From positions 42,070-106,069 of the forward strand of contig JBBTSO010000005.1 of the NCBI GenBank assembly GCA_038064695.1: a DNA stretch of 64,000 nucleotides, written 5' to 3'. The position numbers and the translations under genes are program-made. Shown one piece after another: positions 4,366-15,633 of the stretch. Under the pieces are notes generated by a model. That model was not told the origin of the DNA, ran no database searches, and worked only from the letters and a program-made list of their open reading frames with translations. Positions within the stretch are counted from its first letter, which is position 1. The number at the start of each line of letters is the position of its first letter. The DNA is from Patescibacteria group bacterium. Lineage in GTDB: Bacteria; Patescibacteriota; Minisyncoccia; Phycocordibacterales; Phycocordibacteraceae.

Positions 4366-4383
4366 GATCCGTAGCGACAAAAA

Positions 4384-4410
4384 GCGCCCGTTTTAGGGCG
4401 TTTTTTTAAT
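4384..4410 (+). terminator. rho-independent terminator-like hairpin (GC stem + T run)
   Basis: agcgcccgttttagggcgttttttt downstream of lysS and the 68-aa ORF. Confidence 0.5.
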
Positions 4411-4420
4411 GTTCCTATGT

Positions 4421-4490
4421 GTGGATAAAGGAGCAAAGGTGGGATGAAGTGTCATACAATGGTATCTATGTGGGAGAAAGTGGGATACTT
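4421..4490 (+). promoter_or_regulatory. mraZ promoter/operator region with GTGG(G/A) direct repeats
   Basis: GTGGAT at 4421 and GTGGGA at 4438, 4470 and 4480. The last two are spaced 10 bp apart. They flank a TACAAT -10-like hexamer at 4455, immediately upstream of mraZ. Confidence 0.55.
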
Positions 4491-4516
4491 TTAAAAAGTG
4501 CTCATCCACAACAAAC

Positions 4517-4951
4517 ATGCTGATTGGCGAATACCTCCACACCATTGATCCAAAAAAGCGTTTATCGCTTCCCGTAAAATTTCGCAAGGAATTGGGAAAA
4601 ACGGTTCTGGTGACGAGAGGTCTCGATCAGTGTCTCTTTGTCTTTCCACAAGCTGCATGGAAAAAGCTCGTTTCCAAATTTAGCGAACTTTCATTCGGTT
4701 CCGTTGAGGGGAGAAGCTTTAATCGCTTCATGCTCTCGGGGGCCGTGGAGGTTGACGTAGACTCCGCGGGGCGCATTTTGTTGCCAGAGTTCCTGAAGGG
4801 ATTTGCGGGACTCAAAAGCAAAGTGGTTCTTGCCGGAGTCAACGACCGTGTTGAAATTTGGGACGAGAAACGCTGGAATTCATACAAAGCAAAAATTGAA
4901 TCTCAAGGTGACGCGCTCGCGCAAAAGTTGGGTGAGATAGGCGTTATTTAA
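4517..4951 (+). CDS. mraZ: transcriptional regulator MraZ
   Basis: 144 aa, duplicated MraZ/SpoVT-AbrB fold. The N-terminal MLIGEY..DPKKRLSLP signature is present, and the gene is first in a dcw-type cluster. Confidence 0.92.
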   Translation: MLIGEYLHTIDPKKRLSLPVKFRKELGKTVLVTRGLDQCLFVFPQAAWKKLVSKFSELSFGSVEGRSFNRFMLSGAVEVDVDSAGRILLPEFLKGFAGLKSKVVLAGVNDRVEIWDEKRWNSYKAKIESQGDALAQKLGEIGVI

Positions 4952-4957
4952 AGCACC

Positions 4958-5851
4958 ATGCAGGGACACACTACCGTTCTTTTACACGAAGCAGTAGAGG
5001 GCTTATCACTTTCTCCGGGCAACACAGTCGTTGATGCGACGCTGGGCTTAGGAGGTCACAGCGTTTTGTTGGCGGACATTGTTGGAGCAGGGGGAGTAGT
5101 GGTGGGAATTGATGCTGACCAGAACGCGATTGATGAAGCACGTTCTCGACTTGCCACGGTTGAGGCACGCGTACACCTGATCAACGGAAATTTCCGTGAT
5201 CTTGCGACTCATCTTTCTGCCATTGGTTTCAGTGAAATACACGGGGCACTCTTTGACCTTGGATGGAACTCCACACAGTTGAACGCGGGAAGGGGATTCA
5301 GTTTTAAATCTGATGACCCACTGGTTATGACGTTGGACGCACATCCAGAAGAAGGGAGACTTACCGCGCATACGATTGTTAACCAGTGGAGTGAACGCGA
5401 CCTTGCCGACATCATTCGTACCCTCGGAGAAGAGAAGTTTGCAGGACGCATTGCGCGCGTGATTGTAGAGCATCGGAAAAAAACTCGAATCACTCGCGCG
5501 AATGAGCTTGCCGAAATCATTTCGTCCGCGGTGCCACATTTTTATCGCGTGGGAAGCATTCACCCCGCGACAAAAACTTTCCAAGCACTTCGGATGATGG
5601 TGAATGACGAGCTGACTTCACTCACTGCCGGACTTGAGCAAGCATTCTCACTCCTCGCCACCCACGGAAGAATCGCGGTCATTACCTTCCACAGCTTGGA
5701 AGACGGCCTCGTCAAACGATTATTTAGAGATCTTGCCAAAGAGGGACGTGCGATACTTGTCACCAAAAAACCACACATTCCAACACGAGAAGAAATTAGC
5801 AACAATCCTCGCGCGCGAAGCGCAAAATTACGAATTATTGAAAAAGTATGA
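4958..5851 (+). CDS. rsmH: 16S rRNA (cytosine1402-N4)-methyltransferase RsmH
   Basis: 297 aa with the HxPVLL-like start (HTTVLLHEAVEGL) and the GGHS motif. It follows mraZ. Confidence 0.92.
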   Translation: MQGHTTVLLHEAVEGLSLSPGNTVVDATLGLGGHSVLLADIVGAGGVVVGIDADQNAIDEARSRLATVEARVHLINGNFRDLATHLSAIGFSEIHGALFDLGWNSTQLNAGRGFSFKSDDPLVMTLDAHPEEGRLTAHTIVNQWSERDLADIIRTLGEEKFAGRIARVIVEHRKKTRITRANELAEIISSAVPHFYRVGSIHPATKTFQALRMMVNDELTSLTAGLEQAFSLLATHGRIAVITFHSLEDGLVKRLFRDLAKEGRAILVTKKPHIPTREEISNNPRARSAKLRIIEKV

Positions 5852-6165
5852 ACCGAACACACACCACGCGAGAAGTTTCTTTTGCATATGAAAAACGCAT
5901 CCTGTTCGGCGTGGGCGTTGTGATTTTAAGCTTGATGGTTATGTATACCTACTTCGTGTCGCTTTCTATCGCGCACGCGGTTTCTCGTGAATCATACGTG
6001 CGTGAATCAGAAGGTCTTGTAGACACGGTAGCGGCGCTTGAACGTGAGTACCTTACCCGTTCGAACAGCATGACCGAGCGCGTGGCGTATGGGTTAGGGT
6101 ATGTGCCTATTAGTACGCGTGTCTACGTAGAGCGCGGAGTGCTATCCTTGGGTAATGCGCGCTAG
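5848..6165 (+). CDS. ftsL: FtsL-like cell-division membrane protein
   Basis: 105 aa, single TM. It sits between rsmH and ftsI with overlapping stop/start codons. Identified by context and topology only. Confidence 0.5.
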   Translation: MNRTHTTREVSFAYEKRILFGVGVVILSLMVMYTYFVSLSIAHAVSRESYVRESEGLVDTVAALEREYLTRSNSMTERVAYGLGYVPISTRVYVERGVLSLGNAR

Positions 6166-7915
6166 CTTCATAAATAGAATTCGCGTACTCGCTCTCATAC
6201 TTCTCGGTGTGGGAGTTGTTTTATTGTTTAGGTTGTACACCATTCAAATCATAAACGGTGAATCGTATCGCGCCCGGGCTGAAACACAGTACTCATCTCA
6301 GAGCCCGCTGCACTTTGATCGAGGGTCAATTTTTTTTACCGCCCGTGACGGTTCACGAATAAGCGCGGCAACACTGGAAACAGGCTATACCGTGGCGCTG
6401 GTTCCTAAAGAGGTGACTAACGTCTCAGTACTCTATGAGTCACTTTCTCAACATCTTGAATTAGACGCAGAGGAATTTTTAGAAAAAGCGGGGAAAACAA
6501 ATGACCCATACGAAGAAATCGCGCGACGCGTTCCCCTTGATATTGGTGAAGCAATAAAAGAAAAAAAATTGCCAGGAGTGCAGGTTATACGTGAAAAATG
6601 GCGACTCTATCCGGGTAACGAAACCGCAGCGCAGACGATTGGGTTTATGGGGTATGGTTCTGGGGACACCCTGGTAGGTCAGTACGGGTTGGAACGTTTT
6701 TATGATGAGGTGTTAACCAAACCAAACACCGGCCTCTACGTCAACTTTTTTGCCGACCTCTTTGCAGGAATTCGCTCTCAATTTTTTTCACCCCAAGGGC
6801 AGGGAGGTGCCGACGTCGTGACCTCGCTTGAACCCAACGTGCAAACATTTTTACAGGGAGTGCTGGAGTCATACCAAACGGCGTGGAGCGCCGAAGAAGT
6901 TGGAGCGATTATCATTGACCCAAAAACAGGAAGCATTTACGCACTCGCGACGTACCCGACGTTTGACTTAAACCACATCACGCAAGCAAACCCCGATGCA
7001 TTTTCGAATAGATTAGTAGAGCGCGTGTACGAGTTTGGTTCTATTGTAAAACCACTGACGGTCGCTGCTGGCATTGACGCGGGTGTGGTGACTCCGGAGA
7101 GTACGTACAACGATAAGGGGTACGCGGTGTATGACGGTTCACGTATTTCTAACTTCGACGGCAAGGGAAGGGGAGTTGTTTCCATACAGGAGGTATTGAA
7201 TCAATCTTTGAACACGGGTGTCGCACACATTGTTGAAAAGCTTGGCTCCAACACGTTCCGTTCGTACCTTGAAGCGTATGGTTTGAAGGAAGAAACGGGG
7301 ATTGATTTGCCGAACGAAGCTGAGCCTCTTGTTTCAAACCTTGAAAGTCCACGAACCATTGAGTACGTTACCGCGTCGTTCGGGCAAGGCATTGCGGTAA
7401 CTCCCGTTGCGATGACGCGCGCGTTAGCCGTGCTGGCAAATCATGGCGTGGTTCCGTCCATTCACGTTGGCACGGCGCTGTCGTACGCGGGGCGCTTTGA
7501 TAAAAAGATTGGGTGGGTAAAAGAAGAGCGCGCGCTTTCGCCTGAAAGTGCCGAAACGGTAACACGTATGCTGGTTGAAGTAGTGGATACGTCGCTTCGT
7601 GGTGGATCGGTAAAAATTCCTGAACTTTCAGTGGCTGCCAAAACAGGGACGGCACAAATCGCGCGCGCAGACGCGCGCGGATATGAAGAAAACCGCTTCC
7701 TTCACTCATTCTTTGGATATTTCCCCGCCTATGATGCGCAATTTTTAGTTTTTCTATACGCGGTAGCGCCACAGGGCGCGCGGTACGCATCTGAAACGTG
7801 GACTGCTCCCTTTATGGAAACAGTGCGTTTTCTGGTATCCTATTACGATATACCTCCTGACCGTTTGCCCGTTGAGGCACACCGCACCGAAGAATCAGCA
7901 CGACACGATCTATGA
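6155..7915 (+). CDS. ftsI: peptidoglycan D,D-transpeptidase FtsI (class B PBP)
   Basis: 586 aa with an N-terminal TM and SxxK (GSIVKP), SLN and KTGTA motifs. Position is after ftsL and before murF. Confidence 0.85.
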   Translation: MRASFINRIRVLALILLGVGVVLLFRLYTIQIINGESYRARAETQYSSQSPLHFDRGSIFFTARDGSRISAATLETGYTVALVPKEVTNVSVLYESLSQHLELDAEEFLEKAGKTNDPYEEIARRVPLDIGEAIKEKKLPGVQVIREKWRLYPGNETAAQTIGFMGYGSGDTLVGQYGLERFYDEVLTKPNTGLYVNFFADLFAGIRSQFFSPQGQGGADVVTSLEPNVQTFLQGVLESYQTAWSAEEVGAIIIDPKTGSIYALATYPTFDLNHITQANPDAFSNRLVERVYEFGSIVKPLTVAAGIDAGVVTPESTYNDKGYAVYDGSRISNFDGKGRGVVSIQEVLNQSLNTGVAHIVEKLGSNTFRSYLEAYGLKEETGIDLPNEAEPLVSNLESPRTIEYVTASFGQGIAVTPVAMTRALAVLANHGVVPSIHVGTALSYAGRFDKKIGWVKEERALSPESAETVTRMLVEVVDTSLRGGSVKIPELSVAAKTGTAQIARADARGYEENRFLHSFFGYFPAYDAQFLVFLYAVAPQGARYASETWTAPFMETVRFLVSYYDIPPDRLPVEAHRTEESARHDL

Positions 7916-9265: not shown

Positions 9266-10219
9266 ATGAGTAAACAGAGAGTACTCCTTGCCTTTGGGGG
9301 GATTGTACTTATTCTTGTCGTTGGTATGTGGGGGTGGGTCGTATTTGGCCCCGTTCGGTATTCGCTATTTTATTTTTTTACCCTGCTCAATGCGCCTCAA
9401 GAAGTGAAAGATATGCTTTTTGTTGTTGACAGTGACAGCTCATCTTCGCTTGTCCGTATCCGTCTCGGGGGTCTTGAGACTCAAACATTTGAAGGAATTC
9501 ATATTTTAGGAGTTGAGCGCACAAACGACAAAACAGCAGTGCTGGTATTTCAACAAGGGAGTGGCGCTACGAATGTGGCTCGAGTGGAAGGGGATGCTCT
9601 GGTGCCCTTAACTGATGATGGAGAGATGAAAAAAAGTGTCGCTTTTTCTTCTGATGGAGCATATTTTGCCTACACTGTTCCGGTGAGTTTGTCCCTTCAG
9701 GAGAGTGACTCAGATTCAGGGGAAGTGCCGTCAATCTCATACTCTCCCAATGCGTTTAGTGTTCAAGTCTATGAACGTTCCGGTGCCTTTATTGAGTCTT
9801 TTTCAGGGAACCATCCGTTTTTTTTAGACAATGAGACACTCGGATTTTTTTCTGAAGAAGGGATTGAAACGAAGAATCTCGTCAAAGGCGACAAAACGTA
9901 TATTTACGACGACATCGCTTTTTTGGCAGATGAACGTCCGTATTTCGGGCGCAATAACACCATGATCGTCCGCAACCCTGTTTCCAATGAACTGGTCGTC
10001 TTTCAATTTATTTCCACGCCGCCCTTAGTGTATCGAATCGCCGGAGTGCTGCCTGGCTCGTCGAACGGTTTCGCGCTTTCCCGAGACGATGCTGTATACC
10101 ACGGGTTTTCAACTGACGGATCGTTTATAATACAGAAAGTGACTGATTTTGAACAGTCGCCAGAAGTCTTTTTTTCAATCCCGTCCTCGTTTTTTAGTCC
10201 CACCAGTGCGGTGTTTTAG
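9266..10219 (+). CDS. hypothetical membrane-anchored protein with a beta-rich extracytoplasmic domain
   Basis: 317 aa, N-terminal TM. SSDGAYFAY-type segments are reminiscent of TolB/PD40-like repeats, a weak match. Confidence 0.45.
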   Translation: MSKQRVLLAFGGIVLILVVGMWGWVVFGPVRYSLFYFFTLLNAPQEVKDMLFVVDSDSSSSLVRIRLGGLETQTFEGIHILGVERTNDKTAVLVFQQGSGATNVARVEGDALVPLTDDGEMKKSVAFSSDGAYFAYTVPVSLSLQESDSDSGEVPSISYSPNAFSVQVYERSGAFIESFSGNHPFFLDNETLGFFSEEGIETKNLVKGDKTYIYDDIAFLADERPYFGRNNTMIVRNPVSNELVVFQFISTPPLVYRIAGVLPGSSNGFALSRDDAVYHGFSTDGSFIIQKVTDFEQSPEVFFSIPSSFFSPTSAVF

Positions 10220-10241
10220 TTCTGATAATTTATAAAAGCAT

Positions 10242-11762
10242 ATGACATTCGTTTCAAAGTACAAGCCCTTTAAAAAAAAGACACTGGTGACGCTCATGGC
10301 CGCACTGTTTTTGTTTCCTTTTTTCGCCCAGGCTGCTACCCCGACAGCGACACTCACCGTAACCCCCTCGACGGTTTTTCCTCCAGCTACGGGGACAAAC
10401 AATACACAAGTGTATGTAACGTGGTCGTCAACAAACGCTACGAGCTGTTCAATCGTTCGTCAAAAGCCTGACCTAACCAAATCAACTCTCCCTACAGGTG
10501 GAGCAAAAAGCGGTTCATACATTGACCGTGCGCTTGAGGTTGGTTTTACTAATTATGAACTCACTTGCTTTGGCGGGGGCACGTCAGTGAAGGTTACAAA
10601 AACGGTAATAGGGCAGTCTCCGTATGCTGGTCCATCTACTGGTTATGGGACGGGAGCTGGACAGTGCGCGAGTGGTGTTTGTCTGTCATCGCCAGGTGTG
10701 CTGTACATTCCATGCAGCATTCTTCTGACCAGCGATAAAACCACCACGCTCGGTTTTACCAATGACTCTGCCGCGATCACGCTTGGTCAGAGTGTGAAAT
10801 TGATTTGGAGTAGTATCATTTTTGCCGGCAACACTGCAAATATTATTAACTACGGACCTATTTCGCCTCCATCAGGCGGTTCGGTAACGGTTACCCCAAC
10901 TCAAACAATCACGTACACTGCTCAGTGTACGTTTGGAGGCGCTGGCATTTACGGTTACTCAGGGGGTACCATTAACTCAAACTCAATCACTATCAACGTC
11001 GCACCGCCTTCGGTGTCCGGAACCTGTAGTGTCTCTCCTGCAGGCATCACCTCAGGCTCTTCGGCTACGTGGACTGCGGTACCAAGCGGAGGCGATGGAA
11101 CCTACACGTATTCTTGGAGTGGTACCAGCGGACTTACTGGTACTGCCCGCACGGTAACGAAATCATATTCAACGACCGGCACAAAAACCGGAACAGTCAT
11201 CATCACCTCTGCGGGCGTTTCAAAAACAGTCCAATGTTCCAACTCACTCATCGTTTCAAGTCCGACACCACAATGCTCAAACGGTATTGATGATGACGGC
11301 GATGGCCGCATTGACTCGGCAGACTATGGATGTACATCCTCCGGTGGAGGTGGAAACATTGCAAACGACCCTACTGAATCACCCAATCCTCAATGTTCGG
11401 ACGGGGTTGATAATAACGGCAATGGGTTGATTGACACTGCTGACGTGGGCGCGTGCACGGATCCTGCTGATAGTAATGAACAACCACTGCCTGGCTCAAC
11501 ACTTTCTCTTTCTGGTTCCGCGCTTGTTCAAAAGTCTTTACCCGCAACACTCATATGGTCGGTTTCTAATGTTCGCGCGGGGTCGTGTACTCTGTTCGGT
11601 ACCAATGGCGACTCCTGGGATCTTACAGGAACGTCGGGCGTTCTTGTATCATCGACTATTTCCGGAGAAACCACCTTCACCCTTCAGTGTCTTGATTTGA
11701 ACGGAAATCCCACAAGTAAAACTCATAACGTTAAAGTTGCACCCTCGTTTGAGGAAGTTTAA
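10242..11762 (+). CDS. secreted repeat protein with Ig-like modules and two Cys-bracketed Asp/Asn-rich (DxDxDG-type) motifs
   Basis: 506 aa with a signal peptide. It contains repeated modules of about 85 aa (W-S-S-x-N ... T-Y-x-L-x-C). It also has two copies of the motif C-S-[DN]-G-[IV]-D-[DN]-x-G-[DN]-G-x-I-D-x-A-D-x-G-(A)-C. Paralogous to the next ORF. Confidence 0.6.
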   Translation: MTFVSKYKPFKKKTLVTLMAALFLFPFFAQAATPTATLTVTPSTVFPPATGTNNTQVYVTWSSTNATSCSIVRQKPDLTKSTLPTGGAKSGSYIDRALEVGFTNYELTCFGGGTSVKVTKTVIGQSPYAGPSTGYGTGAGQCASGVCLSSPGVLYIPCSILLTSDKTTTLGFTNDSAAITLGQSVKLIWSSIIFAGNTANIINYGPISPPSGGSVTVTPTQTITYTAQCTFGGAGIYGYSGGTINSNSITINVAPPSVSGTCSVSPAGITSGSSATWTAVPSGGDGTYTYSWSGTSGLTGTARTVTKSYSTTGTKTGTVIITSAGVSKTVQCSNSLIVSSPTPQCSNGIDDDGDGRIDSADYGCTSSGGGGNIANDPTESPNPQCSDGVDNNGNGLIDTADVGACTDPADSNEQPLPGSTLSLSGSALVQKSLPATLIWSVSNVRAGSCTLFGTNGDSWDLTGTSGVLVSSTISGETTFTLQCLDLNGNPTSKTHNVKVAPSFEEV

Positions 11763-11875
11763 CCGTACTCACATAGGAGTGCATTGTATTTAGTATTATG
11801 GACATCTTAAACACTACCCCCAGTCGTTGATTGGAAGCACTTTTTGTGTTGGGTCAAGTGGTATGATACTGGTAT

Positions 11876-13243
11876 ATGAATATTCTTAATACGATAGGTT
11901 ATTTCATTGTTCAAGTTGTTGCGGGAGCATTAACATTTGTTGGAATACAAACCCCGATAAACCCCACACTCAACGTTACCCTCGGTGCATTACCAACCAC
12001 CATTAATGCGGGGGAGGTAGCAAAATTATCGTGGTCTTCTAATGGCGCGGTAGAGTGTACGAGTATTGATTTTAGTACAGGAAGCCAGGTTGTGGGCAAC
12101 AAAGACGTATCACCAACACAGACCACTACGTACAATATTTTGTGCTTTGATGCAAAATCAACCGCACTTGCAACACCAGGAACGTGGCAGCTAAGTGACA
12201 CTGACTATACCGATTTCGCCTGCCCGGTATCAACCGTGGAGCTTGATTTGGGGAACGGAGTCACTGAACCAATTCCTGAGTGTGCGGGGTCTGTGCCAAA
12301 ACAAAACTGCCCCGTGAACCAAAATGGCGGATGTAACTGGTCCAATTCATTTGAACCTTCGGGAACAGCGTGTTCAGGAACTGGTCAGTGTAAGGTGAGC
12401 TCTTCGAGTCAGAGTTGTGTCGTCAAAACAAAAATATATTCTTGTACACCTACACCAGTGACGACGGGAACGTGGACGCTCGTCGGAAGCGACCTCTCAG
12501 ATATCTTCATATTTCCTGGGGGAGATCCAAGCAAGAATCAAATTTACCGTGGAATGCAAGACTGCCCGGTACCAGACCCTGAAGGCAAGTCATGTACCAG
12601 TGCAAATCGATGCAAAACGAACAAAACGGTTGGATGGTTGGTTTACACCGACATTTATGCGTGCCAGGGAGGCGGAACAGCACCAAAACCCCAAAACCTT
12701 AATGCGGTGAGTTCACAAGTAACGGTGACAGTGAATCAAGCAGTTACTCCACCCGGGGGTGGAGGTGGGGGAAGCGGACAATGTTCTGACAAAAAAGATA
12801 ATGATAACGACGGAAAAGTTGATAGTGCCGATTTTGGTTGTTCAATAGGAACAGGGAACGAGAGCCCAAATCCGCAGTGTTCAGACGGCATTGATAATAA
12901 TAACAACGGGCTCATTGATCTTAAAGACACAGGAGCCTGCACAAGTTCTACTGATAATAATGAGCGGTTTCCTGACGGTGCAGCAACACTTTCGGCAGAT
13001 ACACTCGTGTTAAAAAATACTTCCGCCCGCATTTCGTGGAGTATCAGTAACGTTGTTGCCGGTTCGTGTGTCTTGAAAGGAACAAACGGTGACACATGGA
13101 CTCTCACTGGTAATTCAGGGACGGTGACTTCGTCTCCGCTCGCAAATGAAACTCAATTTACTTTAACCTGTACTGACCTCAACGCACGTTCAATTAAACA
13201 GTCGGTGACCGTAAAAATTGCTCCAACGTTCGACGAGCAGTAA
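11876..13243 (+). CDS. secreted repeat protein, paralog of 10242-11762
   Basis: 455 aa with the same domain order. The C-terminal 90 aa and the SPNPQCSDG[IV]DNNxNGLID motif are conserved with the upstream ORF. Nucleotide identity is only moderate, indicating an old duplication. Confidence 0.6.
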   Translation: MNILNTIGYFIVQVVAGALTFVGIQTPINPTLNVTLGALPTTINAGEVAKLSWSSNGAVECTSIDFSTGSQVVGNKDVSPTQTTTYNILCFDAKSTALATPGTWQLSDTDYTDFACPVSTVELDLGNGVTEPIPECAGSVPKQNCPVNQNGGCNWSNSFEPSGTACSGTGQCKVSSSSQSCVVKTKIYSCTPTPVTTGTWTLVGSDLSDIFIFPGGDPSKNQIYRGMQDCPVPDPEGKSCTSANRCKTNKTVGWLVYTDIYACQGGGTAPKPQNLNAVSSQVTVTVNQAVTPPGGGGGGSGQCSDKKDNDNDGKVDSADFGCSIGTGNESPNPQCSDGIDNNNNGLIDLKDTGACTSSTDNNERFPDGAATLSADTLVLKNTSARISWSISNVVAGSCVLKGTNGDTWTLTGNSGTVTSSPLANETQFTLTCTDLNARSIKQSVTVKIAPTFDEQ

Positions 13244-13248
13244 AAATA

Positions 13249-13279
13249 AAAAACATCTGCTTCGGCAGATGTTTTTTTG
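13249..13279. terminator. bidirectional rho-independent terminator
   Basis: aaaaacatctgc-ttcg-gcagatgttttttt: a perfect 9-10 bp stem with an A run before and a T run after. Confidence 0.7.
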
Positions 13280-13284
13280 GTAGG

Positions 13285-13301
13285 CATGACTCCACGGAGA
13301 A
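13285..13301 (-). repeat. 17-nt duplicate of the tRNA-Glu 3' end (att-like direct repeat)
   Basis: catgactccacggagaa is identical to 13492-13508. The extended form GTANNCATGACTCCACGGAGAA matches at 20 of 22 positions. Confidence 0.6.
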
Positions 13302-13493
13302 GTGTCCTGTTGGAGACAACAAGCACGCATCGGTCAAGCGCTCGTTCGTCGCCGGTCGCTCCTCACTCCGCCTGACCACGCTCGCGTCGTCCCGATAGCT
13401 TTCGGGTCCCGCGACGCTCGTCTTCGATTTTCCGTAGAGCCTCGGTGAAATACTAAAAAACTACATACGAATGTATGTAGTTTTAAGTATTCA

Positions 13494-13565
13494 TGACTCC
13501 ACGGAGAATCGAACTCCGATTTGAACCTTGAGAAGGTCCCGTCCTAGCCGTTAGACGATGGAGCC
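13494..13565 (-). tRNA. tRNA-Glu (anticodon CUC)
   Basis: The reverse complement folds as a canonical cloverleaf: 7-bp acceptor stem, D arm GTCT/GGAC, anticodon stem GGACC/GGTTC with loop TTCTCAA, T arm CGGAG-TTCGATT-CTCCG and discriminator A. CCA is not encoded. Confidence 0.8.
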
Positions 13566-13803
13566 AAAATCTAGGCCTATATAGGCGCTAGGCTTTTAGT
13601 ATAAACCAGAAAAGCATAAGAAATATACTACGAATTGGCAAAATAATAAAACAAACGCAACAGTGCCGTGGAACTTTGTTTGGCCGTTCCCTGACTTAGG
13701 TGGGGAGATTAACGACGGAGGCTTGAAGGGGTACCCAGACAAATTTTGTAGAATTTTCCACGTGCTACAGTGGTGAGGTGTGAGTTTATATATAACATAG
13801 TGC

Positions 13804-15633
13804 ATGCACTTTTCTATGAAACAACTTGCCCTTTTTGTGTTATTGGTTCTTGCTGCAGCAAGCATCCCCATAACCTTTATCGAACCTGAATTCAGAGTTG
13901 AAGCGCTCGCTTCATTTAAGAATGATTTTCGCACTCTCGTGGCGTCGCTTTCTTCAGTAGCGCCATCGGGACAGGTAGCGGGCGTCACTTCTCTCGATGT
14001 TTCAGGGGAGAGTTTTTTTAAACGAAGCGATGTACTGCTTTCTCCCCGTGGTGTGGAGAGCGGATGGAAGGCTGTCTACGATTCTTTTTTAGCAAATCGT
14101 ATTGCGTGGACGTACGCATGGAATACTTACGTTCCGCTTGGACAAAAACTTAACATTCCCGTGCAGTGTACGTTTACCTATTGGATTCCGGCAAGTGAGC
14201 CACTCGCGCCACAAATGGAGTGCCCAGGAGCAAAAGGCAAAACAGTTGGCCTTTTGCCCGACGTGCGTACTAAAGCGTGGCAAACGTTCCAGTTGGCAAA
14301 TGTAAAAAAACAAATTGACGCCGGCTGCACCGCGTTTCAACAGGACGGTATGGGAGCTTCGGAAGGCCTATCTTATGGGTGCGGGACGAAGGAAGAAATA
14401 GTCAGTTACAACACATGGCTCCATGATGAGACGCAAAAGTACGCGTGGAGTATTGATCCCTCGCGTCGTATCACATTCTCAACAAATATTACGAACAATC
14501 AATTCAAAAAGAATGACTTCGCATGGATTTTAGACAGTTTTGATTTTTTAGTAAACGAAACGTACGGTGACAGAGCAACTACGCTTTCCTCATTACGTTC
14601 AAGCGCCGCGGAAACTCGGTACTATGACCCCGCGGTGAGTGCGAGCACACTAGCAAGCGAAGACGTATGGCTTAACCAGCGGTTTATTGCATCTGCCTAC
14701 GCGCTAGGGATTCTCCCAATTGCTCCATGGAGTGTCTATACTGGTCCGACAATGCCACGGTTTTATGGGAATGCGACAGACTTTGCAAAGCTTTATAGTG
14801 TTGTCCGAAATAATCAAACCCTTTTTGATTCTTATACATTTCTTCGAGACTCGGACAACACTTCTGGAGTGATTGCCCCCCTTCAACCACTTCACTACTC
14901 AGTGACTCCTGGAGCCGACGGGGGAGTAAAGAGTGTTGATACCGTCACGTATCCTGATCGAGTCACTATAAAGTGGACCGGTCAATCCTCGTATAAAAAA
15001 GTGGTGAAAGGGCAAAAACTACGAATTGGTAGCACGGTATTTACCACCACTGGAGGAAGTAATGTAGGGAACATTTATCTTCCTGTTGGCTCTCAGGTTG
15101 CAGTAAACCAACCGGTATTTATGAAGGATCTCTCAATTCCACCCTCTCCTGTTCTTGTTTCTCAGGGGTTGGTAACCAAAGTGGACGCTACGACGTACCC
15201 GCAGCGTGTAGCGGTAACGTGGACCGGTCGTACGGACGCGGAAAATAAAAATGTCCCCAAGGGAACGACTGTAACCATTGCAGAAAAAAACTATTCAACG
15301 GTCGTTGACACCACGGTGGGTAACATCTATGTGCCAGCAGGTACTCCTGTTGCAGTAGGCGATACCTTCTCAATCTCTAAAACAAAACTTCATGTTGTGG
15401 TAACCACCTCTCAGGTTGATAAAGCAAAACGCGCGGTGCACCTAGTGAATTGGGACGACACAACGGTACGCCCGGGTCTTTCACTTTCAAAGTATGACTT
15501 TCCGAAACCACCAAATAAAATCGTTACCTCAGAGGCATCGGTCGCAACAGCGATTACTCCGGAGCTTCGAGGTAACTATTACGTCTACACACTTCCTCCG
15601 CTTGATACCTGGCTAATTTTATTCGCTGAGTGA
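13804..15633 (+). CDS. secreted hypothetical protein with a C-terminal internal tandem duplication
   Basis: 609 aa with a signal peptide. Two repeats of about 80 aa (TYP[DQ]RV..[KT]WTG...VGNIY[LV]P.G[ST].VAV) occupy the C-terminal third. Confidence 0.55.
   Translation: MHFSMKQLALFVLLVLAAASIPITFIEPEFRVEALASFKNDFRTLVASLSSVAPSGQVAGVTSLDVSGESFFKRSDVLLSPRGVESGWKAVYDSFLANRIAWTYAWNTYVPLGQKLNIPVQCTFTYWIPASEPLAPQMECPGAKGKTVGLLPDVRTKAWQTFQLANVKKQIDAGCTAFQQDGMGASEGLSYGCGTKEEIVSYNTWLHDETQKYAWSIDPSRRITFSTNITNNQFKKNDFAWILDSFDFLVNETYGDRATTLSSLRSSAAETRYYDPAVSASTLASEDVWLNQRFIASAYALGILPIAPWSVYTGPTMPRFYGNATDFAKLYSVVRNNQTLFDSYTFLRDSDNTSGVIAPLQPLHYSVTPGADGGVKSVDTVTYPDRVTIKWTGQSSYKKVVKGQKLRIGSTVFTTTGGSNVGNIYLPVGSQVAVNQPVFMKDLSIPPSPVLVSQGLVTKVDATTYPQRVAVTWTGRTDAENKNVPKGTTVTIAEKNYSTVVDTTVGNIYVPAGTPVAVGDTFSISKTKLHVVVTTSQVDKAKRAVHLVNWDDTTVRPGLSLSKYDFPKPPNKIVTSEASVATAITPELRGNYYVYTLPPLDTWLILFAE

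Follow-up and report, generated by a model that had tools for sequence, protein, structure and literature searches.

Why should the 3′ end of a tRNA gene be present twice, with a mere 190 bp between the two copies? This question is raised by a stretch of 64,000 nucleotides from a Patescibacteria group bacterium (NCBI GenBank assembly GCA_038064695.1, contig JBBTSO010000005.1, positions 42,070 to 106,069; hereafter the window), the gene content of which is that of housekeeping functions, as is typical for an ultra-small genome of the Patescibacteria type. A first-pass annotation, made from the letters alone, had offered two answers: the decayed remnant of an integrated element, or a small structured RNA located beside the tRNA. 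The answer reached here is a more specific form of the latter: the GC-rich stretch between the copies is one copy of a conserved folded RNA module of ∼160 nt, which we call the tRNA-tail module. It is tied to the 3′ ends of tRNA genes, it is conserved and covarying, it occupies an insertion-like position, and it is present or absent at orthologous sites.

The starting observation holds in full. The 17-mer CATGACTCCACGGAGAA occurs in exact copies at 13285-13301 and 13492-13508 of the window (20 of 22 positions match when the flanking bases are included), and no third site is found in the window even when two mismatches are allowed. Exact search, ARAGORN, and Rfam agree that a minus-strand tRNA-Glu(CUC) has one of the copies as its 3′ end, and both programs find one tRNA in the whole window. 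On the tRNA strand, the repeat consists of T-loop positions 59-60, the 3′ strand of the T-stem, the 3′ strand of the acceptor, the discriminator, and two trailer nucleotides. The interval between the copies is indeed GC-rich: the GC fraction of 100-nt windows is 0.63-0.65 there, compared with 0.46 over the full window.

Could the repeat be due to chance, or to an assembly or binning artefact? We consider this possibility negligible. The chance expectation is 0.01, and none of 100 shuffles gave two hits. The sole point in favor of an artefact is that all the data come from metagenome-assembled genomes (MAGs) and metagenomes; against it, the architecture recurs in unrelated samples, and the repeat and its spacer cannot be an assembly artefact because an independent assembly of the same population (ENA Hain_H41 R2 contig, L005) is identical over the 560 bp of the intergenic region.

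What, then, lies between the two copies? Along the minus strand, a promoter-like site is followed by the tRNA, then by a hairpin rich in A and U that has a U6 run, by the GC-rich element, and finally by a strong bidirectional terminator (Table 1). The distal copy of the repeat is the 3′ strand of a helix that closes the GC-rich element; the other strand of this closing helix is an antisense 5′ arm, a feature that the first-pass annotation had overlooked. In the window, the 5′ end of the module, GGCUCUACGGA, forms 11 contiguous bp with the distal repeat, and the 5′ arm is able to pair with either copy of the 17-mer; its best ungapped match to the tRNA is 17 of 23, the differences including two G·U-compatible changes. 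The tRNA 3′ end and the 5′ arm are complementary to each other, and the two halves of the spacer hairpin prolong this complementarity into one long imperfect palindrome. The smaller features pointed out earlier also find their place: the cccga/tcggg hairpin is located at 13391-13406, and the 20-bp palindrome at 13461-13480 is the stem of the terminator-like hairpin 13457-13484, with its U run following on the minus strand. The “cgctcg” motifs are present, but they are the strands of RNA helices. As for coding potential, six-frame translation gave only short Arg-rich frames.

The evidence for a fold comes from the relatives of this copy, which fall into two subtypes, A and B. RNAalifold, supplied with seven subtype-A and six subtype-B sequences, gives a consensus made of the closing helix P1 (arm to arm), P2, P3 (GGUC...GACC), and P4, the length of which varies between members and thereby shifts the reading frame of translations across it. 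In the two alignments, paired cells amount to 93.0% and 93.9%, against 37-49% when the partners are slid by 1-3 columns; double-sided changes are seen at 17 and 20 pairs, against 3-10 in the slid controls, and the observed pairing measures were equalled in none of 500 shuffles. The fold z-score is -3.5 for the minus strand and 0.07, no better than shuffles, for the plus strand; the fold is specific to the tRNA strand because its G·U pairs are invariant. A strain-level single-nucleotide polymorphism at window position 13345 (T>C in contig L003) converts a U-A pair to U·G, and the pairing is kept. Finally, a covariance model of 159 positions (R1), built from seven relatives with the window left out, matches the window at 13284-13445 on the minus strand over model positions 1-159 of 159, with 106.6 bits and an E-value of 2.7e-25. 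A covarying family and a match of this kind exclude the idea, also raised at the outset, that the spacer is unconserved drift.

How widely is this module distributed? The entry point was a homologue of a flanking protein, which led to locus L006 (53% identity), where the module abuts the gene. L006 shares with the window the blocks UGACCGAUGCGUGC, ACAGGACACUUC, and AAUCGAA, and shows compensatory changes in the helices. A pattern derived from these blocks gave six JGI metagenome contigs and seven genuine loci in GTDB genomes, the hosts being Paceibacteria, Saccharibacteria, and “Patescibacteria group” MAGs; two candidates, L014 and L022, were rejected as chance matches inside coding DNA. With nhmmer, further and more diverged copies were detected within the loci already found, and the total is now ∼20 copies from Patescibacteria MAGs and metagenomes.

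Every complete copy is found directly 3′ of a tRNA gene and on the same strand, a position counted for 16 copies. On that strand, the layout is tRNA, short hairpin, 5′ arm, a core of 3-4 helices, 3′ arm, and terminator, and the window copy follows it: 3′ of the tRNA, same strand, terminator after. The size and boundaries of the module are uniform across loci. The tRNAs that carry it are Glu-CUC, Gly-UCC, Gly-GCC, the initiator Met, a second Met, and Pro-UGG, and a fragment occurs behind Arg-UCG. Within subtype A, the cores behind Glu and Gly-UCC are 77-83% identical; within subtype B, those behind fMet, Gly-GCC, Gly-UCC, and Glu are 80-90% identical. P4 is identical between two copies of the same genome, even across subtypes (L019a/b and L011b/c). 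An all-against-all clustering of the open reading frames (ORFs) at 16 loci detected no protein family common to the neighborhoods across lineages, only lineage synteny.

The core is conserved; the arms follow the tRNA. After the invariant GGACAC that ends the core, the 3′ arm of each copy repeats the adjacent tRNA from position 59 on. The exact repeat is 15-17 nt long in most copies; in L019 it extends over 56 of 56 nt, CCA and terminator included, and in L015 it reaches ∼85% identity over ∼55 nt. Positions 54-73 of the same tRNA (T loop and the 3′ strands of T-stem and acceptor), often with some trailer, recur in the 5′ arm as their reverse complement. This is clearest in the T loop, which the arm mirrors at all 14 loci with a known tRNA: UUCGAUU gives AAUCGAA, UCCGAUU gives AAUCGGA, UUCAAUU gives AAUUGAA, and UGCAAGU gives ACUUGCA, each 7 of 7. 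The window and L013 share synteny and spacer type, and their tRNA-Glu genes differ at three positions of the 3′ strand: both arms have changed in parallel. The two arms pair into a helix of 11-14 bp with the sequence of the T-stem and acceptor stack of the tRNA, and subtype B has an extra hairpin at the acceptor/T-stem junction (within one nucleotide), which is where nucleotides 8-48 leave a real tRNA. A separate observation concerns the T loop UCCGAUU, found in several tRNA-Gly genes (Table 1): it has a C in place of the near-universal U at position 55, and the module arm mirrors this C.

Are there sites without the module? Locus L007 is syntenic with the window and has a nearly identical tRNA-Glu, but the terminator comes directly after the tRNA and the R1 model finds no match. 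Likewise, AATGATTTG comes directly after a tRNA-Pro in L011; in L020, the tRNA and a second TTCTCCGCACCCCGAC have the module between them, and beyond this second copy the flank is the one seen at the tRNA-Pro of L011. The comparison with related genomes that had been suggested thus yields empty sites in L007 and at the L011 tRNA-Pro, the latter with its filled counterpart in L020. Relative to an empty tRNA gene, the insertion point is T-loop position 58/59, with a complete tRNA kept upstream. Deletion between the direct repeats also gives the empty form, so that the direction of the change is not established by these pairs of sites.

With a direct repeat that begins in the T loop and passes the tRNA 3′ end, as attL/attR do, and with empty sites in relatives, the locus has the formal signature of a classical duplication by a tyrosine integrase, in which an island or prophage would have integrated in the T loop of the tRNA and shrunk to the present 190 bp. 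This part of the original suggestion stands; the decay does not, and we hold such a scar to be very improbable. The supposed remnant is under purifying selection for RNA structure (17-20 covarying pairs), has the same size and boundaries everywhere, and occurs with near-identical cores at at least seven tRNA targets, whereas integrases are target-specific; in addition, the antisense arm would have no role. The reading fails because both copies of the repeat belong to a conserved longer RNA, a finding that had been named beforehand as incompatible with it.

Nor is there a trace of the enzyme. No integrase ORF lies within the 190-bp interval, and the neighbors have no integrase domain; none is present at any of the ∼20 module loci, nor in the top 25 of the 86 Pfam families matched by the 63 ORFs of the window, all of which are housekeeping. 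The ORFs flanking the module contain no Pfam domain, and no nuclease, recombinase, or reverse transcriptase gene adjacent to the module is common across loci. Comparisons by blastn with phage and plasmid collections, together with pattern scans of IMG/VR, gave no match that would suggest a phage, plasmid, or viral origin.

Elements that target tRNA genes leave attL and attR sites that duplicate the tRNA 3′ end, with the T loop among the sublocations used. The module resembles them in the repeat that runs from the T loop past the tRNA end, in the preservation of a complete tRNA, and in the filled and empty sites; it differs in its size of ∼200 bp, in having neither integrase nor cargo, in placing one core at at least seven tRNA species, and in carrying an antisense copy of its target.

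Many copies are decayed or rearranged. The short forms in L009 and L021 have lost the 5′ arm, and their UGUGACC core segment, together with the bases preceding it, is the antisense of GGGUCACAAAAAU, the tRNA-Glu end with its trailer; the P3 helix (GGUC...GACC) of the long forms may derive from an older tRNA-Glu end and its antisense. Behind the tRNA-Arg of L011, only part of the core is left. At the tRNA-Pro of L012 (6488-6600), the terminator stem continues into the acceptor 3′ strand, the two making up a perfect palindrome of 25 nt, and the remnant there is a 5′ arm of subtype-B type with an inserted hairpin and no core: the antisense half alone. In L018 (7418-7471, minus strand), a second, subtype-A-like module, AAUCGAAAGCAAGCGCGGGUACCGAUUCAGCUGAAUCGGUCGCGCGGGG, starts right after the 3′ arm and then breaks off, so that the two are in tandem or nested. 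The tRNA body is missing or displaced at L010 and L017. The minus-strand order in L017 is tRNA-Gly-UCC (7005..6934), an island of 2.4 kb (4543-6934), and the module (4543..4381); the boundaries of the island are CCCGCAC repeats, which are the last bases of the tRNA, and among its ORFs is a 61-aa one of antitoxin type, ribbon-helix-helix/CopG (VapB-like). This island, in which no integrase domain is found, has the look of a block inserted secondarily at the 3′ end of the tRNA.

How can these data be brought together? The reading we favor is that the module is an insertion-prone RNA element, free of protein genes, that has moved repeatedly among tRNA genes and has ends matched to each of them; we give this an even chance of being right. 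The cores that are 77-90% identical behind different tRNAs, the filled and empty sites, and the decayed copies support movement. The module would be read through from the tRNA promoter and act as RNA. We infer the read-through because the window has one promoter-like site (TTGCCA-17-TATGCT, the sole sigma-70-like match on the minus strand of 13100-13900), because the Gly-UCC spacers have no U runs, and because the terminator comes after the module. The 5′ arm, which spans the 58/59 junction, would recognize or align the tRNA gene or its transcript, and the tRNA-like closing helix may let tRNA-processing enzymes release and stabilize the RNA.

Several points weigh against repeated movement. At the loci examined, neither a mobilizing enzyme nor a catalytic motif was identified; the copy number is low, with one or two exact-core hits per GTDB genome, and no identical multi-copy set, such as an active transposon leaves, was seen. 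As said, deletion between the direct repeats is another way to obtain filled and empty sites, and the re-tailoring of both arms to a new tRNA is left unexplained. In the window, the spacer hairpin looks like a (weak) terminator, so that read-through is assumed. The closing helix is not always fully kept, since the distal repeats are degenerate in some copies (L011b, L011c, and L019b). Moreover, the family has only ∼20 members, all from MAG or metagenome assemblies. A miniature inverted-repeat transposable element, or another miniature derived from an insertion sequence, is a poor description as well: there are one or two exact-core hits per genome, the arms vary with the tRNA, and the repeat is 15-56 nt long.

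A bolder proposal, which we think rather unlikely, gives the arms a precise task: the element, again free of protein genes, would be RNA-guided, the 5′ arm being an internal guide over the 58/59 junction that aligns a tRNA gene or transcript, cut or opened there, with the spare 3′ end. If so, the module would insert into new tRNA genes, or would act in trans on damaged tRNAs, giving them a replacement 3′ end by donation or templating, much as a splicing or repair ribozyme or a telomerase-like template does. RNAs with guides include those of group I introns (P1/P10), group II introns (exon- and intron-binding sites, EBS/IBS), TnpB (reRNA), IscB (omega RNA), and IS110 (bridge RNA). Like these, the module combines a conserved scaffold with variable target-matching segments, and its 5′ arm spans the insertion junction as an internal guide does; 3′ of its scaffold stands a target-identical segment of ∼16 nt, like that of the TnpB reRNA. 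Unlike them, the module has no catalytic-core signature, no match to the Rfam intron or IS605-orfB models, no adjacent enzyme, and a duplicated target. The resemblance is a lead and not a membership.

Another question is whether the arms act on the tRNA beside them. Constrained folds were calculated for each tRNA-module transcript in two forms: one in which P1 closes the module and the tRNA keeps its own 3′ end, and an exchanged form in which the 5′ half of the tRNA pairs with the distal copy while the proximal 3′ end is held by the 5′ arm. The exchanged form is lower by 7-19 kcal/mol in every intact member, in folds that ignore tRNA tertiary structure and folding order; in the window, the values are -129.6 (exchanged) and -122.5 kcal/mol (closed). 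As tertiary structure and folding order are left aside, all that these folds show is that both conformers are available. Five nucleotides of the 5′ arm, complementary to the T loop, have no partner within the module and yet covary with the tRNA.

These results invite the reading of the module as a resident cis-acting RNA switch on the maturation of the upstream tRNA, in which the 3′ third of the tRNA, the antisense 5′ arm, and the decoy 3′ arm compete. The core would sense a ligand or a protein and stabilize the arm-arm helix; on opening, the 5′ arm would capture the 3′ third of the tRNA by way of a T-loop toehold. The five nucleotides just mentioned would be this toehold, and the complementarity reaches into the trailer. 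Since the exchanged conformer is the more stable one in the constrained folds of all intact members, two states are available for such a switch; the core is closed by a P1-like helix, as in aptamers, and the module is placed between the tRNA and the terminator. What makes the switch improbable, in our judgment, is the rest of the data: the distribution is patchy, orthologous sites are empty, many copies are decayed, and the same core stands behind at least seven tRNA species with ∼35 nt re-tailored each time. By the time the antisense arm is made, the tRNA has already been transcribed and can have folded, and some copies have lost the decoy arm and kept the antisense one; no ligand or partner is known, and there is no regulated downstream gene.

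Or is the module simply a small RNA that acts in trans and does not move? Here the mimic of the tRNA top half would be a signal for processing or stability (RNase P, RNase Z, CCA addition), and the ends would be kept identical to the tRNA not by function but by local gene conversion and by template switching at the quasi-palindrome. The closing helix does have the sequence of the T-stem and acceptor stack, with the subtype-B hairpin at the junction of the two, and the module is apparently co-transcribed with the tRNA; the identity of P4 within a genome shows that copies do convert one another. The spread to so many tRNA species is left unexplained, as are the exact stop of the arm at T-loop position 54 and the perfect 56-nt repeat of L019, and one would expect a copy of the T loop in a tRNA mimic, not its complement. 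For these reasons, we find the proposal doubtful.

RNAs comparable to such a product exist. In the rtT repeats of E. coli, each unit carries the 3′ end of tRNA-Tyr. Like the module, the units (∼170-180 nt) lie downstream of a tRNA and end in a copy of its 3′ end; they are co-transcribed and processed to a small RNA of unclear function. The tyrT operon with these repeats and RtT RNA (Rfam RF00391) has been described (bioRxiv 10.1101/2024.07.17.603846). The module differs: it has no sequence or covariance-model similarity to RtT, which belongs to one tRNA, is found in enterobacteria, and has neither an antisense arm nor a family across tRNAs. With the tRNA-like domain of transfer-messenger RNA (tmRNA), with YrlA, and with mascRNA, the module shares ends that pair into a tRNA-like helix and a foreign domain that replaces part of the cloverleaf; it differs in having no T arm (the core takes the place of the T loop), no Rfam match, and a helix that copies the adjacent tRNA.

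The 3′ external transcribed spacers (ETS) of tRNA transcripts can be functional, an example being the E. coli 3′ETS-leuZ, a sponge of small RNAs. Both these RNAs and the module would come from the trailer of a tRNA transcript, but the former are short, unstructured, and lineage-specific, without tRNA-matched arms or a conserved core. In archaea, non-canonical tRNA introns have spread among the tRNA genes of Thermoproteales. They resemble the module as related intervening sequences at T-loop positions of many tRNA genes; however, they do not duplicate the exon and are spliced at a bulge-helix-bulge, while the module has an intact tRNA before it and no such motif is evident.

At the gathering thresholds of Rfam 15, the window gave only the tRNA; at E<=10, nothing relevant appeared in 13150-13850, and at E<=1 three relatives gave only tRNAs. 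There were no covariance matches to RtT (RF00391), tmRNA, bacterial Y/YrlA, 6S, signal recognition particle (SRP) RNA, group I/II introns, or IS605-orfB motifs, and ARAGORN found no tmRNA. Inspection by eye led to the rejection of SRP RNA, RNase P RNA, 6S RNA, retron RNA, group I/II introns, and a bulge-helix-bulge intron, for lack of the signature motifs, the size, or an adjacent reverse transcriptase. Full-text searches of the literature gave no description of the module. It is absent from Rfam 15, and since it lacks the testable defining features of the systems compared (an integrase, a covariance-model match, a nuclease or recombinase next to it, a high copy number with fixed ends), we place it in no family other than the tRNA-tail module (model R1).

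If the favored reading is true, a huge and little-understood radiation of bacteria has tRNA genes with a recurrent RNA appendage, which both copies and complements the 3′ third of the tRNA, and a new RNA family would be at hand with an unusually explicit and testable design: two competing helices, a T-loop toehold, and a mimic of the tRNA top half. It bears on several fields: non-coding elements that home to tRNA genes without an integrase, RNA control of tRNA maturation or repair in reduced genomes, and the share of “att-like” tRNA duplications that are misread as prophage scars. In practical terms, programmable RNA tools have the same format: arms that match a target and can be exchanged on a conserved scaffold.

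Table 1. Features of the tRNA-Glu locus in the window, and tRNA-Gly genes with the T loop UCCGAUU.
Feature	Coordinates	Strand	Basis or remarks
Promoter-like site TTGCCA-17-TATGCT	13613..13641	-	∼47 nt upstream of the tRNA; consensus match only
tRNA-Glu(CUC)	13493..13566	-	ARAGORN; Rfam tRNA, 53.8 bits; intact, CCA not encoded
Proximal 17-mer copy UUCUCCGUGGAGUCAUG	13492..13508	-	tRNA positions 59-73 plus 2 trailer nt
Spacer, long AU-rich hairpin	13442..13491	-	Core 13457-13484 terminator-like, 12 bp, U6
Whole module	13284..13445	-	Covariance-model boundaries
5′ arm GGCUCUACGGAAAAUCGAA	13423..13441	-	Antisense to tRNA positions 54-72, covering the T loop and the 3′ strands of T-stem and acceptor
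Core domain P2, long hairpin including the CCCGA/UCGGG stem	13378..13422	-	Folding; hand alignment of relatives
Core domain P3, GGUCAGGCG...CGCUUGACC around an inner helix	13332..13377	-	Covariation
Joining segment GAUGC, invariant	13327..13331	-	Alignment of relatives
Core hairpin P4, GUGCUUGUUG-UCUC-CAACAGGaCAC	13302..13326	-	Covariation; conserved bulged A; invariant GGACAC end
3′ arm, distal copy of tRNA positions 59-73 plus 2 nt	13285..13301	-	3′ strand of closing helix P1; 17/17
Bidirectional terminator hairpin	13248..13277		Common to the module and the convergent gene 11876-13243
tRNA-Gly genes with UCCGAUU	L019:3542-3615, 6514-6585; L020:2578-2650; L011:3894-3965		

Some minor observations concern the surroundings of the module. 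Two low-coverage assemblies of the same population, L002 and L003, stop inside it, at ∼13375-13378, which is ∼132-135 nt past the stop codon of the convergent gene; these breaks may reflect a loss of coverage due to GC content or structure, or strain heterogeneity. Four large ORFs around the tRNA (317, 506, 455, and 609 aa; window 9266-15633) have no Pfam match; in all probability they encode proteins, perhaps of the surface, that evolve fast and are specific to the lineage. Clustering groups the 506-aa with the 455-aa protein, as tandem paralogues, and for the latter just 17 homologues are found in a database of 5.8 billion proteins. In one and the same syntenic interval, the unit made of tRNA-Glu and module is inverted in the window, and apparently in L006 too, compared with L013 (449-731) and L007 (7337-7408); the interval has the homologue of the 455-aa protein at one end and YqeY, RmuC, and L21 at the other.

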